From Nanobdellota archaeon (lineage in GTDB: Archaea; Nanobdellota; Nanobdellia; Pacearchaeales; GW2011-AR1): a stretch of DNA of 64,000 bases. Made by a program: the position numbers and the translations under genes. Every line of letters starts with the position of its first letter. The stretch's first letter is position 1. The notes beneath the pieces were generated by a model. That model was not told where the DNA came from and ran no database searches. It saw only the letters and a program-made list of their open reading frames with translations. Below, in pieces: positions 3 through 26,195 of this stretch. The stretch lies in assembly GCA_038046005.1 (NCBI GenBank), contig JBBSXB010000001.1:32001-96000 (forward strand), read 5' to 3'.

Positions 3-1787
3 ATAAAAGGAGGATTTAATGGATTTGTAACGGCAGTAGGTTACGCTGCTGCTTTAGGAGCTATAGCAGGATTAACAGCAAAACTATTTGGAGCAAGCAG
101 TGCAGAAGCAAGTGCAATAGGCAAAGGAGTTGGATTTGGATATCTTGGATTTAAACTTACTTTAACTTTCGTGAAATTTATAGGAGTTGCCGGACCAGCT
201 GCACCAATCGTTGCAGCAGCAGTTGCTGTTGCCATATTCTTGGGTTTTTTATTTGGAACAAAAGACTACAAACAAGAGACAGTTGTTTTCCAGTGTCTTC
301 CTTGGCAGCCACAAGCTGGAGGAGACGATTGCAATAAATGCAACACTCAAATTTTGCCTTGCAGCGAATATCAATGTAAGTCTCTTGGAGTTAGCTGTGA
401 ATTAATAAACAAGGGCACGAATAAACAAAAGTGCTTTGCGACAAAGGCAAATGATGTGAAAGCTCCTGAAATAACTCCTGCAATAGAATTTTTGACTAAT
501 GGATTTATTTATAATCCAATTGAATCTAATAACTTTGGAGATAGAGGAGTAACAATTCAGAACACCGCACCCCCAACTAAATGTGTAAAAGCTTTCCAAT
601 CATTCACATTCGGATTTAAGACAGACGAACCTGCACAGTGCAAAGTTAGTACAACAAGACAAAAAAGCTTCAATGAAATGCCAAATATATATGTTGGAAG
701 CAATTATTGGACACTAAATCACACTATGTCAATGTCTTTCCCAAGCAAAGAATCTTTAGATGCTGAAAACATAACACTACAAAATGGGGGGCAGTTTAGC
801 CTTTATGTCAGGTGTCTCGATCAAAGTCCAAATAAAAATGCCAACACGGCTGACTTTGTCTTCAAATATTGTGTTGAAAATGGACCAGACACAACGCCCC
901 CATATATCGTGACAACAAATATTTTAGATAAAACTCCTGTCGCTTTCGGTCAGAGTTCTGTGGATGTCAACTTCTACATTAACGAGCCTGCTGAATGCAG
1001 ATGGACACATGATATTGACAAATCATTTGACAATATGGAAGGAACAATGAGCTGTGCGCAAAGAGTCACAGAATTTAATGTCCAGAATGTTTATCCATGC
1101 AAGGCTACATTAACAGGAATAAAAGATTCACAAGAAAATAAATTTTACATTAAATGTAAAGACAAACCTTTTTCAACAGGCAACAGAAACACAATGGCCC
1201 AAGGATATTCTTTCACTTTGATAGGAACAAAGCCTTTAGTCATAAGCGATATTGGCCCTAATGGAACAGTAAAAGATTCAACAGAAGCTGTGAAGGTTAC
1301 ATTAAGAGTTGAGACCACTGCAGGATACAAAGACGGACAAGCAACATGCTTCTACAGCGATACAGAAAATGAAAAGGACTACAATCAGTTTTACCCTACC
1401 ACTGGCGGAAACACTCATGCTCAAGATTTATGGTTACCTACAGGAAGTTACAAGTATTTTATAAAATGTGTTGACTTGGGAGGAAACATAGACACTAACT
1501 TCACAGAGTTTAATGTTGAAAGCGATAATCAAGCCCCATTAGTTGTAAGAGCTTATCACGAAGATGATTTATTAAAACTGATAACAAATGAAGAAGGGAA
1601 ATGTGTTTATTCAACCAGCGATTGCACTTATATCTTTGACGACGGACAGATTCTTAACAGCTTTGAAAAGAAAGAATTTTCAATAGGCTGGGATTCAAAA
1701 AGAACCTATTACATAAAATGCGAAGACCAATATGGAAATCAGCCATCACCAAATATGTGCAGTATAGTTGTAAGACCTTTGAATTGA
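3..1787 (+). CDS. 5'-truncated large surface protein: Gly/Ala-rich hydrophobic helices, Cys-rich segment, about 4 disulfide-bonded Ig-like repeats
   Basis: Frame is open from nt 3 (IKGGFNGFVTAVGYAAALGAIAG...), so the true start lies upstream of the window. Repeated motifs TDEPAQC/INEPAEC/TNEEGKC pair with LYVRCLD/FYIKCKD/YFIKCVD/YYIKCED. Confidence 0.75.
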   Translation: MKGGFNGFVTAVGYAAALGAIAGLTAKLFGASSAEASAIGKGVGFGYLGFKLTLTFVKFIGVAGPAAPIVAAAVAVAIFLGFLFGTKDYKQETVVFQCLPWQPQAGGDDCNKCNTQILPCSEYQCKSLGVSCELINKGTNKQKCFATKANDVKAPEITPAIEFLTNGFIYNPIESNNFGDRGVTIQNTAPPTKCVKAFQSFTFGFKTDEPAQCKVSTTRQKSFNEMPNIYVGSNYWTLNHTMSMSFPSKESLDAENITLQNGGQFSLYVRCLDQSPNKNANTADFVFKYCVENGPDTTPPYIVTTNILDKTPVAFGQSSVDVNFYINEPAECRWTHDIDKSFDNMEGTMSCAQRVTEFNVQNVYPCKATLTGIKDSQENKFYIKCKDKPFSTGNRNTMAQGYSFTLIGTKPLVISDIGPNGTVKDSTEAVKVTLRVETTAGYKDGQATCFYSDTENEKDYNQFYPTTGGNTHAQDLWLPTGSYKYFIKCVDLGGNIDTNFTEFNVESDNQAPLVVRAYHEDDLLKLITNEEGKCVYSTSDCTYIFDDGQILNSFEKKEFSIGWDSKRTYYIKCEDQYGNQPSPNMCSIVVRPLN

Positions 1788-22727: not shown

Positions 22728-24140
22728 ATGAGCTATATGATTTATGATCTTATTTTGTTGGGAATATTCATAATTGCAGTTGGAAGTTTTTTATACAGAA
22801 AAAGAGAAAATTTGAAGAAGGAAGGTTTGCTTTTTCTTTACAGAGCAGAGTGGGGAATAAAATTAATAAACAGCGTAGGGAACAAGTATAAAAAAACATT
22901 AAAATTTTTGAGTTACATTTCAGTGATATTAGGGTATCTGCTCACTGTAGGAATTCTTTATCTTACTTACTCTATTGTTAAAATTTATATATTGCATCCT
23001 GAAGTTGTTAGTGCTATAAAAGTCCCGCCGATAACACCATTGATTCCCTACATTGACAAGGTTGTTCCTTTCTTGCCTCCTTTTTATTTCACATACTGGA
23101 TAGTAATTTTAGCGATTGTCGCAATAAGCCACGAATTCGCACATGGAATTTTTGCAGTTTATAACAAAGTGAAGATAAAAAAAACAGGATTTGGATTTTT
23201 CCCATTTTTCTTGCCAGTATTTTTAGCCGCTTTTGTTGAGCTTGACGAAAAAGTTATGGTAAAAAAATCAAATTTTGCGCAAAGAGCGATTCTTGCTGCA
23301 GGAACATTCGCTAATGTAGTTACTGCAGTTATATTCTTTATAGTTTTAGGATTATTTTTCATGGCAGCTTTTCAGCCAGCAGGAATTACTTTTGATGATT
23401 ATTCTTATTCTGCTTTAAGTGTTTCATCAATACACTCAATTAATGGCGTCATAGTAGTCAACACTTCTGAAGAAGGTCTTCAAAAATTAATAAAAAATGC
23501 TTCTTTCAATGAGATTGAGGCAGGAGGGAAAAATTATGCCGGTATTAAAGGATTTTCAAGTGATGGGAAAACTATAGCTCTTTATGATGATTCTCCTGCA
23601 ATAAAAGCAGGATTAAATGGTGCCATAACTGAAATTAACGGACAAAAGATAATGAGTGTAGATGCTTTGTCTCAGGAATTATCCAAACATAATCCAGGAG
23701 AAAGTGTAATCATAAAAACAGAGACAAGCAATGGAACCAAGAATTATAATATTACTTTGGGACGAAATCCTGCTAATTCTGGGAAAGTTTGGTTGGGAGT
23801 TGGTTTTTTGACACAAGAAACGAAGGGATTTTTCAATAAGGTTTTTGCATCAATTTCTTCCTTTAAAAAACCTAATATATACTACAAGTCAGTAATCGGA
23901 GAATTTGGATGGTTCATATACCACTTGCTTTGGTGGCTCATACTAATAAGTTTCAGCGTCGCATTGGTTAACATGCTGCCAATAGGAATTTTCGATGGAG
24001 GAAGATTCTTTTATCTAACAATTTTAGCAGTTACTGGAAAAGAAGTTTGGGCCCGAAAAATCTTTAAGTGGGTAACTTGGCTTTTCATACTTCTGTTGAT
24101 AGTTTTAATGGTTTTTTGGGCCTTTGCAGTTATATTCTAG
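22728..24140 (+). CDS. Site-2 protease (M50) with PDZ domain
   Basis: HEFAH, AGTFAN, NMLPIGIFDGG; PDZ-like SPAIKAGL...ITEING. Confidence 0.92.
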   Translation: MSYMIYDLILLGIFIIAVGSFLYRKRENLKKEGLLFLYRAEWGIKLINSVGNKYKKTLKFLSYISVILGYLLTVGILYLTYSIVKIYILHPEVVSAIKVPPITPLIPYIDKVVPFLPPFYFTYWIVILAIVAISHEFAHGIFAVYNKVKIKKTGFGFFPFFLPVFLAAFVELDEKVMVKKSNFAQRAILAAGTFANVVTAVIFFIVLGLFFMAAFQPAGITFDDYSYSALSVSSIHSINGVIVVNTSEEGLQKLIKNASFNEIEAGGKNYAGIKGFSSDGKTIALYDDSPAIKAGLNGAITEINGQKIMSVDALSQELSKHNPGESVIIKTETSNGTKNYNITLGRNPANSGKVWLGVGFLTQETKGFFNKVFASISSFKKPNIYYKSVIGEFGWFIYHLLWWLILISFSVALVNMLPIGIFDGGRFFYLTILAVTGKEVWARKIFKWVTWLFILLLIVLMVFWAFAVIF

Positions 24141-24193
24141 AAGGTTTTTTAAACTGCAAAGAATTGTTACAACGATATAAAAAAGTGGTGAAA

Positions 24194-24505
24194 ATGGGAA
24201 AAATTTCAGAAAAACAATATACTTTTATGGTTGCAATTGTTGGGATTTTGATAGTTTTATCATTATTCTTAATCTTAAGTGACTTTATTGAATTTAGAAC
24301 AGGAAACGTTGCAAAAGACGTTCAAGGAAAAAGGGAATGTTTTGTTGGGACCTGTAATACTTATTACAGATGCGGCGAAGCCGGAAGTTTACAAAAGAAC
24401 ACATGCACAGTAAATAAAGAAAGCGGGACTTGTGATCCCATAGAACCACCAAACACATGCCAATTTGTTGAAGAAGTTTGTAACACGAAGAAAGTTATTT
24501 GTTGA
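24194..24505 (+). CDS. Small membrane-anchored Cys-rich protein
   Basis: ATG 24194 after GTGGTG; TM helix, RTGNVA, then 8 Cys. Confidence 0.6.
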   Translation: MGKISEKQYTFMVAIVGILIVLSLFLILSDFIEFRTGNVAKDVQGKRECFVGTCNTYYRCGEAGSLQKNTCTVNKESGTCDPIEPPNTCQFVEEVCNTKKVIC

Positions 24506-24805
24506 TTATCTAGAAGGAACATATTCTGCTTCCCAAAAAGAACCTTTACAGCCTTTCAAAGATAATAATTTTAAGGCATTCATTAATTCAATTTGTTTTG
24601 TATTACCAAAAGTTAATTTTTCTAAACCTCTTTCTATATCTTTTATCCTGATAATTTTTCCAGAGTGAGTTTCGACATGAGGATCACGATTACTGTCTGG
24701 ACCTAATGGAAAAACAGCAAAATACCCCTTTATTTCCAAGCCTATTATCAAACTTTCTCTTTCAGAATCACTTAAATTTTGGTAAGTATCCCAATCAATT
24801 TTCAT
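24506..24805 (-). CDS. Orphan hypothetical protein
   Basis: ATG 24805 directly after a duplicated gene-end sequence. Confidence 0.55.
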   Translation of the reverse strand: MKIDWDTYQNLSDSERESLIIGLEIKGYFAVFPLGPDSNRDPHVETHSGKIIRIKDIERGLEKLTFGNTKQIELMNALKLLSLKGCKGSFWEAEYVPSR

Positions 24806-24806
24806 T

Positions 24807-24887
24807 TCACAAATCAATAACTCCTTCTTCCGAAGTGTTTCACGGAGTAAACCTTCGCAGAAATTATAAGTCTATGACACCCTCTTT
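24807..24887 (-). repeat. Diverged duplicate of the gene 3' end flanking a 27-nt palindrome
   Basis: KEGVIDL* (24864-24887) and EEGVIDL* (24807-24830) separated by hairpin CGAAGTGTTTCACGGAGTAAACCTTCG (24831-24857). Confidence 0.75.
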
Positions 24888-25214
24888 TGTCAATGCAGCA
24901 AATCTAATTCCAACTGGAAAATTTATCAGCGCAGAAATCAAAGCCATGTGCTCTTTTCCTTCTCCAGAAGCTAAACTCAAAGCTACTTCCATGCCGCTAA
25001 TTTTTCCCTTGAGTTTTTCTGAAAATTCATCTCTAAGCTCTTTTATTTTTTTGCTAAAATCTACCTTAATAAATTCAAATGGTTTTTCATGCTTGAATTC
25101 TTTTGCAAAGTCATCTCCAAAAATAATTATCTTATCCCATTCTCCATACTTCATTAAACCAGAAACCTGCGCCCAGGTTCCCTTCCCAGTTGATAATAAA
25201 GCTACGAGTTCCAT
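24864..25214 (-). CDS. Hypothetical protein (Rossmann-like alpha/beta)
   Basis: 116-aa ORF MELVALLSTGKGTW...SGEGKEHMAL. Confidence 0.75.
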   Translation of the reverse strand: MELVALLSTGKGTWAQVSGLMKYGEWDKIIIFGDDFAKEFKHEKPFEFIKVDFSKKIKELRDEFSEKLKGKISGMEVALSLASGEGKEHMALISALINFPVGIRFAALTKEGVIDL

Positions 25215-25215
25215 T

Positions 25216-25413
25216 TTAGTCTATTTTGGCTGTTTCTGTAATAAGTTTAATTAATCTAGACTGATCTGCTTCAACTTCACCTACTGTTTTTCCATCAGCT
25301 ATTCTTTTTTGAGTTAGATGCGGTCTTGGATGGCCGTAATCTGGGTCGTTGCAGTATGCACAATTTGTTGGACAGGGAGTCCACTCTTGAGGATTATATT
25401 TTTGATTGTTCAT
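25216..25413 (-). CDS. Small hypothetical protein with CxxxCxxC
   Basis: 65 aa, coupled to the downstream gene by TAAAATG. Confidence 0.45.
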   Translation of the reverse strand: MNNQKYNPQEWTPCPTNCAYCNDPDYGHPRPHLTQKRIADGKTVGEVEADQSRLIKLITETAKID

Positions 25414-25565
25414 TTTAAAAAGACAATAGTAGGATTTTTAAGCATTATTGTGATTTTTAAATTAGTAATCTTTATAAACCGATTTTATCTCAAGATTTAG
25501 TCGTTTGAACCATATCGTCATGGGATATATTCTATGTTCATGGCGCATAATCTGGGAGACATACA

Positions 25566-26195
25566 ATGGAACTTGAAGAAGAACTAAAGAAAGCTCTGAT
25601 AGAGCTAAGGAAAGGAAAAGAAAGAAAGTTTGATCAAACAGTTGACTTAATTGTAAATTTGCAAAAATTCAACATAAAAAAAGATTCTGTAAATATTTTT
25701 GTTAACCTCCCCCACAAGATAAAAAATAAAAGAATAGCTGCTTTTTTAGAATCAAAGAATTCTGCCATAGACACAATAACACAAGATGAGTTCAAAGGTT
25801 ATAGTGATAAAAAATCTTTAAAAAAACTTGTGAAAAGATTTGATTTCTTTATTTCCCAAGCCAGTTTAATGCCAAAAGTAGCCACTGTTTTTGGAAAAGT
25901 TTTGGGACCTGCTGGAAAAATGCCTTCCCCCCAACTTGGAATAATTATGAATGTTGATCAAAAAGCCCTAGAGGAATTAAAGGAAAAAATAAACAAAAGC
26001 GTAAGAATAAAGACAAAAGAAGCAAGTATAAAAATTTCAATAGGAAAACAAAGCATGGAAGATGAAAAGATAATTGATAATATAGTTACAATTTATAATT
26101 CTCTGATAAAAGCTCTTCCTAAACAAAAAGAAAACATAAAAAATGTAGAAGTTAAATTCACGATGACTAAACCCCAGAAAATAAGAATAAAATGA
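25566..26195 (+). CDS. rpl1: 50S ribosomal protein L1
   Basis: RKFDQTVDLIVNL, GKVLGPAGKMP, KFTMTKP. Confidence 0.95.
   Translation: MELEEELKKALIELRKGKERKFDQTVDLIVNLQKFNIKKDSVNIFVNLPHKIKNKRIAAFLESKNSAIDTITQDEFKGYSDKKSLKKLVKRFDFFISQASLMPKVATVFGKVLGPAGKMPSPQLGIIMNVDQKALEELKEKINKSVRIKTKEASIKISIGKQSMEDEKIIDNIVTIYNSLIKALPKQKENIKNVEVKFTMTKPQKIRIK

Follow-up and report, generated by a model that had tools for sequence, protein, structure and literature searches.

Why does a conserved archaeal gene end twice, in two synonymous spellings, on either side of a palindrome? The question arises at a locus in the window, as we call the whole 64,000-nucleotide stretch of a Nanobdellota archaeon contig that was analysed. 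The study genome (G000 in coordinates) comprises 875 kb in 15 contigs with 33% G+C, and the MAGs related to it carry the labels Pacearchaeota, Woesearchaeota or Nanoarchaeota. The gene concerned, hereafter gene A, was detected in 55 of 61 related genomes. It matched no Pfam family at E ≤ 0.1, and Pfam likewise yielded nothing useful on its neighbours.

Gene A closes with a functional end, X, whose codon choice is atypical for the gene A family, and a hairpin-forming spacer, S, and a second end, X′, follow it (Table 1). The six EGVIDL codons all differ between X and X′, at third positions only (6 synonymous, 0 non-synonymous), the stop codons differ as well, and the longest run common to both copies is shorter than 6 nt. 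The starts of the two copies lie 57 nt apart and are thus in frame, with an in-frame TGA between them. The sequence-only reading of this locus had described a 3′ end duplicated in other synonymous codons around a palindrome, then a single nucleotide and the ATG of the next gene, and every one of these elements was confirmed in its place.

Table 1 Features of the gene A locus and further duplicated gene ends of the study genome. Positions without a contig label are those of the window.
Feature	Coordinates	Strand	Description
Gene A	24864-25214	minus	Conserved 116-aa protein, ends KEGVIDL + TAA
X (upstream copy)	24864..24887	minus	Last 7 codons + stop TAA; functional gene A end (K-EGVIDL)
Spacer S	24831..24863	minus	33-nt hairpin core, family H
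Full match of hairpin model R1	24823..24864	minus	Outer helix: spacer 5′ end pairs with first bases of X′
X′ (downstream copy)	24807..24830	minus	E-EGVIDL + TGA; family-typical gene A end
99-aa gene (the "orphan" of the sequence-only reading)	24506..24806, including the one-base gap 24806	minus	ATG at 24805
Convergent gene of a small Cys-rich protein	24068..24505	plus	Stop abuts the stop of the 99-aa gene
SMC duplicated end	G000:C3:17327-17441		Outside the window; second recoded gene end; common to G001
OapB duplicated end	G000:C6:27921-28034		Outside the window; second recoded gene end
GyrB duplicated end	G000:C8:163815-163901		Outside the window; second recoded gene end
uS11 duplicated end	G000:C1:119517-119587 (L219 ~1018-1088)		Outside the window; 19/19 nt of the gene end repeated around a 33-nt family H hairpin

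The Cys-rich protein is probably membrane-anchored, and its gene lies between an M50 protease gene and gene A in both the study genome and the sister species G001. At many other loci, the M50 gene faces gene A directly.

Spacer S forms a stem of 9 bp, interrupted by a single bulge, below a loop of 8 nt; to these, five pairs are added between its 5′ end and the start of X′, and its apex carries an overlapping stop and start (GTGA). As a single sequence, the spacer folded no better than its shuffled versions (z −0.16). A covariance model built from five hairpin copies (R1) scores the gene A hairpin at 53.5 bits; of 151 related genomes, 12 contain a match at E ≤ 0.1. Across 16 distinct copies (alignment A4), 85.4% of the cells were paired compared with 77.3% after shuffling, double changes occurred in 8 of 14 pairs, and 0 of 500 shuffles reached the observed covariation score, which was measured on an alignment fitted to the model. 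The cmscan search of positions 24300-25400 against Rfam at E ≤ 10 gave only a 13-bit chance match elsewhere in the interval. Counted genome-wide, the hairpin has two copies in the study genome; blastn-short did not reveal the second one, at uS11, which surfaced only with a fuzzy apex motif. Among the stronger R1 matches, five copies belong to G079, five to G080, and one each to G022 and G063. The family H hairpin always lies in the orientation of its host gene, and at every locus its right arm runs into the start of the downstream copy.

The succession of gene end, hairpin and gene end recurs well outside the window. Among 80 metagenome loci, it was found behind gene A in three further lineages (L082/L083, L104 and L106), none of which carries the 99-aa gene, and in L104 both copies of the end carry the lineage's own variant, EGILDL. 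Gene A is followed by the same structure in G079 and G080, and other host genes are uS11 in the study genome, eL31 in G022, eL24 in G079 and uS9 in G080. At uS11 of the study genome, where an RNA polymerase subunit D-like gene comes next, the sister species G001 shows a clean empty site. In G079, the frame of the glycyl-tRNA synthetase gene terminates inside the hairpin apex. Hairpin and gene end together also form tandem arrays, namely in G079:C9 (period 56), G080:C7 (period 59) and behind GyrB in G080 (period 49); runs of N lie inside the arrays at L221, L234, L308 and L318, where the array lengths are not countable. No such array is present at the gene A locus of the study genome. At gene A of G079 (L238, G079:C5, ~1410-1550, reverse strand), two hairpins follow in succession, the first with its apex broken by an insert of ~43 nt, and the second copy of the gene end stands only behind the second hairpin.

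The architecture also occurs with other spacers. A motif-free scan of the study genome detected duplicated ends behind SMC, OapB and GyrB as well, with the last 7-14 codons recoded synonymously behind spacers of 28-40 nt, and in the relatives it detected GyrB in G008 and G080, OapB in G022, uS11 in G079 and gene A in L198. Some of these 28-40-nt spacers have short motifs in common with family H. In total, 20 distinct duplicated ends were counted among 7702 ORF ends at a threshold of 5 of 6 residues, three of them doubtful or inside arrays; the eL24 case in G079 falls below this threshold and was identified by eye. Exact repeats of the last six residues and the stop within 130 nt were observed at 4 of 3315 ORF ends in the study genome, compared with none of 99,450 when tails were paired with downstream regions from other contigs, and repeats of 5 of 6 residues numbered 6 against 0.17 expected. 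The contrast between the real ends and the control excludes chance. The duplicated stretch extends from a purine-rich tract to 0-3 nt beyond the stop, and the 5′ end of the spacer is the reverse complement of its first bases, in a target-specific manner at uS11 (study genome and G079), L104 and SMC. The duplicated length ranges from about 16 to 45 nt, which is not the fixed short target-site duplication of a classical MITE. As a separate observation on GyrB, the ORF holding its C-terminus measures about 1060-1090 aa in several relatives (G013, G015, G035, G039, G065, G080 and others), compared with about 630-650 aa, which suggests a fusion or an insert further upstream, perhaps an intein.

We consider that the 81-nt feature at gene A is one copy of this structure, which recurs in a family of small-genome DPANN archaea, and that the structure is a small mobile intercistronic element, MIRU-like or REP-like, flanked by the last 5-14 codons of its host. 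To this reading, the best we have, we give about an even chance. The element would land behind a stop codon, beside a purine-rich tract (GAAGAA-like), and its insertion would duplicate the sequence from that tract onwards to a point slightly beyond the stop, probably through a join primed by microhomology. Since the gene end would be duplicated at insertion, the host protein would remain intact and the old junction to the next gene would be kept. The downstream copy may then often be translated as the last part of a mini-ORF whose start codon stands within the spacer or shortly behind it. According to experiments with Haloferax and E. coli, termination-reinitiation needs no more than the last 15 nt of the upstream gene and is abolished by gaps of ~20 nt (PMC10666635, in the part cited here), and the duplicated gene end would therefore be a plausible means of keeping the next gene expressed.

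We infer the mobility of the element from its distribution. The duplicated ends of uS11, OapB and GyrB are missing in G001, a hairpin-less allele of gene A exists in run X5, and at every gene examined the structure is sporadic and missing in most relatives. In a gene A tree (FastTree, 143 sequences, 348 nt; L198 was left out for its different length), the hairpin loci, of which four could be placed, are scattered, each next to a hairpin-less sister; since the tree carries no support values, this scatter is only indicative. Searches for a partner enzyme among Y1 transposases and tyrosine recombinases did not yield one. The Y1 transposase family (PF01797) had 0 matches in the study genome and was present in 2 of the 5 hairpin-bearing genomes searched. 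Tyrosine recombinase genes occurred in all five, so their presence is uninformative. We know of no transposition mechanism that yields duplicated lengths varying from about 16 to 45 nt.

The closest parallels are short bacterial repeats, and among these the MIRUs (mycobacterial interspersed repetitive units) come nearest. MIRUs, as far as the cited account describes them, are mobile repeats that insert at start codons and contain an internal ORF coupled at −4 nt; they are short repeated units between the genes of compact operons, thought to be mobile, often in tandem, with a small coupled ORF and little disturbance of expression (PMC12548453). By this description, the archaeal elements resemble them in their tandem arrays, in the GTGA overlap of the apex and, at some loci only, in putative mini-ORFs with junctions of stop, 1 nt and ATG; the mini-ORF is missing at gene A of the study genome. 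Like MIRUs, they are dispersed units (the two copies in the study genome, 12 of 151 genomes and 16 distinct copies mentioned above), and their presence or absence between close relatives is the evidence of mobility. Unlike MIRUs, they form hairpins, have a low copy number and stand behind stop codons, and the duplication of the host's last codons is not described for MIRUs in the part of the source cited (PMC12548453).

REP elements, imperfect palindromes of 30-40 nt, lie close behind stop codons, in many cases where two genes converge, and their ends can supply stop codons (PMC3733652). Neither a duplication nor a target site is mentioned in that source (PMC3733652). The archaeal hairpins share with REP and BIME elements the imperfect palindrome, the size of 30-40 nt and the position close behind the stop, often with a convergent gene on the other side. 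They differ in that no consistent GTAG or CGTC tag is apparent by eye, only two copies are found in 875 kb, and the study genome has no Y1/RAYT gene.

A gene 3′ end that is present twice, with a functional copy beside the insert and the displaced original downstream, is also reminiscent of integrative elements that leave attL and attR repeats at tRNA or protein genes. Such elements rebuild the 3′ end of their target gene and leave the displaced original downstream, and the two copies may differ when one of them has evolved elsewhere. Unlike these elements, the archaeal insert measures only about 30-40 nt and has no integrase, gene A shows no identical core, and the young copies are exact local duplications. 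No recombinase-bearing element lies between the repeats; the two gene A copies are separated by only 33 nt.

Translational bypass, as in T4 gene 60 and the mitochondrial "byps", likewise involves short hairpin inserts beside a stop codon, with matching sequence downstream. A bypass of the gene 60 type was rejected: inspection by eye shows different codons at take-off and landing (last Leu codon of SMC and the codon before its downstream copy), the frame offset at SMC is 73 nt in one species and 72 nt in the other, and the duplicated peptide would make a bypass pointless. An archaeal bulge-helix-bulge intron was rejected as well. Its hallmark of a 3-nt bulge, a 4-bp helix and a 3-nt bulge is not seen in the consensus, which by eye has a 1×2 internal loop and a 1-nt bulge, and the host stop lies outside the hairpin, so that removal of the apex would not reach the downstream copy. 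We consider the structure a variant of the small intercistronic mobile repeats, whose unusual property is the apparent coding selection on the duplicated ends.

This property becomes visible as the copies age. Young copies are identical or nearly so (uS11 in the study genome, uS11 in G079, and the arrays), and older copies differ almost only synonymously, with the stop at the same position in every diverged copy listed. SMC has 10 synonymous and no non-synonymous differences over 13 duplicated codons, and OapB of the study genome 8 and 0 over 13; OapB of G022 has 6 and 1 over 12. GyrB shows 3 synonymous and 0 non-synonymous differences over 7 codons in both the study genome and G008. For gene A, the corresponding numbers are 6 and 0 over 6 codons in the study genome, 5 and 0 over 6 in L106, and 6 and 1 over 7 in L198. 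The SMC differences include a switch of the Ser codon class. At eL24 of G079, about 14 codons are repeated by eye; two of them read AGA in one copy and CGT in the other, and two changes close to the end are non-synonymous.

The SMC structure could be followed between the study genome and G001, in which the DNA past the downstream copy is unrelated. The two species differ at 7 nucleotides of the upstream copy and at 8 of the downstream copy, without exception at third positions, and the 8 include a change from one stop codon to another; if substitutions were random, the peptide would survive eight of them with p about 2e-6. The spacer between the copies is identical over 30/30 nt, apart from a 1-nt length change at its edge, and 64 of the last 150 codons of SMC differ synonymously. 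Since the changes in the downstream copy are confined to third positions and the spacer is unchanged, this copy, at SMC at least, is no fossil in decay, and the spacer is under constraint as a nucleotide sequence; the evidence for codon-level conservation of the downstream copy comes from this one species pair. A neutral relic does not fit such a pattern, with old copies almost only synonymous and eight third-position changes beside an unchanged spacer at SMC, and a simple selfish-insert model does not predict it. The structure is accordingly more than the mere fossil of an insertion mechanism that the sequence-only reading had seen in it.

In 12 of 17 real cases, and in 11 of the 13 that are diverged, an in-frame ATG, GTG or TTG opens a frame over the downstream copy; the predicted peptides have 13 aa behind SMC and 17-19 aa behind GyrB. 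Such a start is missing at gene A (study genome and G080), uS9, GyrB (G080) and uS11 (G079). The mini-ORFs start 1-37 nt past the host stop, several of them 16-37 nt past it, and at GyrB of G008 both junctions consist of the stop, 1 nt and ATG. At gene A of the study genome, the GTG is out of frame with X′ and there is no canonical start, so the mini-ORF reading fails there, as it does at gene A of G080. From the GTG in the spacer apex (24831-24846 to 24814, minus strand), 9 codons can be read in a frame other than that of X′, up to a stop 8 nt ahead of the ATG of the 99-aa gene; judging from its position, this frame could still bring ribosomes to the 99-aa gene. Readthrough or frameshifting into the second copy was rejected on account of the in-frame TGA at gene A, the out-of-frame offsets at L082, L104, uS11 and SMC, and, at SMC, the different offsets of the copy in the two species (73 and 72 nt).

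We tentatively entertain, at perhaps half the confidence given to the mobile element as such, a bolder reading of these data. The spacer and a short ORF that re-encodes the host C-terminus (of SMC, GyrB, OapB, ribosomal proteins or gene A) would together be a translated and selected DPANN module that has not been described, acting as a ribosome relay or producing peptides that mimic the C-terminus. Its spread would be that of a mobile element, and selection on the spacer and both copies would maintain it.

Which of the two ends of gene A, then, is the added one? X′ and its junction are identical to the gene end and junction at locus L004 (28/28 nt), and relatives' gene A very often ends in the X′ codons, with a single nucleotide between its stop and the ATG of a downstream gene. 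Set against the nearest neighbour that lacks the hairpin, X′ of the study genome differs at 2 of 7 codons and X at 6 of 7, and gene A-wide 36% of the codons for the same residue differ. At L106, the downstream copy differs from its nearest hairpin-less neighbour at one codon and the upstream copy at four, and at L104 the numbers are two and four; the asymmetry is absent at L082. Run X5 contains a contig in which the gene A body leads through X′ directly into the 99-aa gene, without hairpin or X. On another X5 contig, of low depth, gene A ends with the last codons, stop and next five bases of G001, and a truncated X′ and a homologue of the 99-aa gene follow. G001 itself lacks the 99-aa gene, and its gene A stop lies 6 nt from the stop of the convergent Cys-rich gene. 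Since the contig with the G001-like end still has the truncated X′ and the downstream gene, G001 more likely lost them.

The 99-aa gene gave only a sub-threshold POTRA_3 match with Pfam, and a search with its single sequence found weak matches in only two other genomes. With an iterated profile, members of its family were recovered immediately downstream of gene A at 7 of 55 genome loci and, with 32 further matches, at about 29 of 190 distinct loci behind gene A, where several members begin 1 nt after the gene A stop. The supposed orphan is thus a fast-evolving, common follower of gene A. Since X′ is family-typical, resembles the neighbours and is joined directly to the 99-aa gene in X5, and since the 99-aa family is common, X′ and the 99-aa gene represent the original arrangement. 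X′ is most likely the original end of gene A, still one base from its usual partner gene, and the added DNA amounts to 57 nt, comprising the X end and the hairpin.

The slot behind gene A (L004-L018, L059-L138, L139-L218) is occupied, depending on the genus, by HAD-like, histidine-phosphatase-like, Nudix-like or membrane proteins or by the 99-aa family. Many of these genes begin exactly 1 nt past the gene A stop, so gene turnover is concentrated in this slot, and its coupling junction is conserved. At L154 and L179, gene A copies of 79-80% identity lie on contigs of MAGs labelled Bacillota bacterium and Dojkabacteria bacterium, which are probably mis-binned DPANN.

If X′ is resident and X is added, the 57 nt may also have come by recombination between diverged alleles, which we consider unlikely, though still the strongest of the rival explanations. 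The 3′ part of a relative's gene A, together with the hairpin, would have replaced that of the resident, through a homologous left crossover within the gene and an illegitimate right join at microhomology between the purine-rich right arm of the hairpin and the start of the resident last codons. The upstream copy and the hairpin would then be foreign, the downstream copy resident, and the hairpin a mere passenger or a recombination-prone flank. The downstream copy is indeed neighbour-like and the upstream copy odd at 3 of 4 gene A loci, and the last 12-14 gene A codons are dense in synonymous differences from the nearest neighbour. Unusual Asp and Leu codons are common to the upstream copies of unrelated lineages, and these shared codons would fit recombinational spread as well as, or better than, repeated transposition. 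The scatter of the hairpin loci on the gene A tree, the way in which, at every locus, the right arm of the hairpin passes into the beginning of the downstream copy, and the occurrence of hairpin-less and truncated alleles together in one sample point the same way. However, such an exchange can yield neither identical repeats, as in the young cases, nor tandem arrays, and it leaves unexplained both the target-specific complementarity of the left end of the spacer and the codon-level conservation of the SMC downstream copy, inherited by two species.

Somewhat less probable still is a recoding or relay module that the host itself maintains, with mobility secondary. The spacer would be a functional RNA or DNA, and the downstream copy would be translated by reinitiation into a short ORF that hands ribosomes to the next gene or yields a peptide equal to the host C-terminus. 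The SMC pattern favours it (spacer 30/30 nt; only third-position changes, 7 upstream and 8 downstream, p about 2e-6), as do the in-frame starts in 11 of 13 diverged cases with the stop position kept, the GyrB mini-ORF of G008 with stop, 1 nt and ATG at both junctions, and the sufficiency of the last 15 nt of an upstream gene for termination-reinitiation (PMC10666635, within the part cited). On the other hand, it offers no reason why the peptide must copy the host C-terminus, and SMC has no conserved downstream gene. Several starts lie 16-37 nt past the stop, too far according to the experiments cited from that source (PMC10666635), the gene A locus of the study genome has no start at all, and the structure is sporadic, with most relatives lacking it.

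The transfer model of the sequence-only reading, in which the 99-aa gene and the last eight codons of a donor's gene A were inserted behind the resident gene and hairpin, we regard as improbable. The second copy does bear the signature of a coding past and goes with the downstream gene, as that reading held; the arrival of this gene with a donor's flank is not supported, given the hairpin-less X5 contig and the L004 identity of 28/28 nt. The model draws on the missing downstream gene of G001, on the coding-type divergence of the second copy and on L198, which has the same layout with a member of the 99-aa family. Yet this family is widely represented in the slot behind gene A, one allele without the hairpin runs from gene A through X′ into the 99-aa gene, and G001 more likely lost X′ and the downstream gene than never had them. 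Insertion of the downstream gene also fails as the cause, since the hairpin and the duplicated end exist without such a gene at L082, L104, L106 and uS11. Several related strains do coexist in samples, but an artefact, be it a chimeric assembly of two strains, which the sequence-only reading had named as what would overturn it, or a chance likeness, can practically be dismissed, because in 4 runs from 2 studies contigs that cover 24000-25529 or 24000-25600 cross the junction with 0 differences from the study genome (runs that may be its source data and are thus not independent support for the assembly), the architecture is present in independent metagenomes and MAGs, and the chance control gave 0/99,450.

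We found no description of an element of this kind in DPANN or other archaea in a limited literature search. If the reading as a small mobile element holds, very small archaeal genomes would carry tiny gene-end elements that are harmless to the host gene and to translational coupling, by virtue of the copied last codons. The conserved second copies would mean either that translated short ORFs behind stop codons matter in these organisms or that some other process keeps non-coding copies matched to the protein. For annotators, the lesson is that in such genomes an "orphan" gene and an odd intergenic palindrome may belong to one and the same structure. The duplicated gene ends would, in turn, provide a concrete and datable marker of gene flow, insertion and loss in uncultivated DPANN populations.
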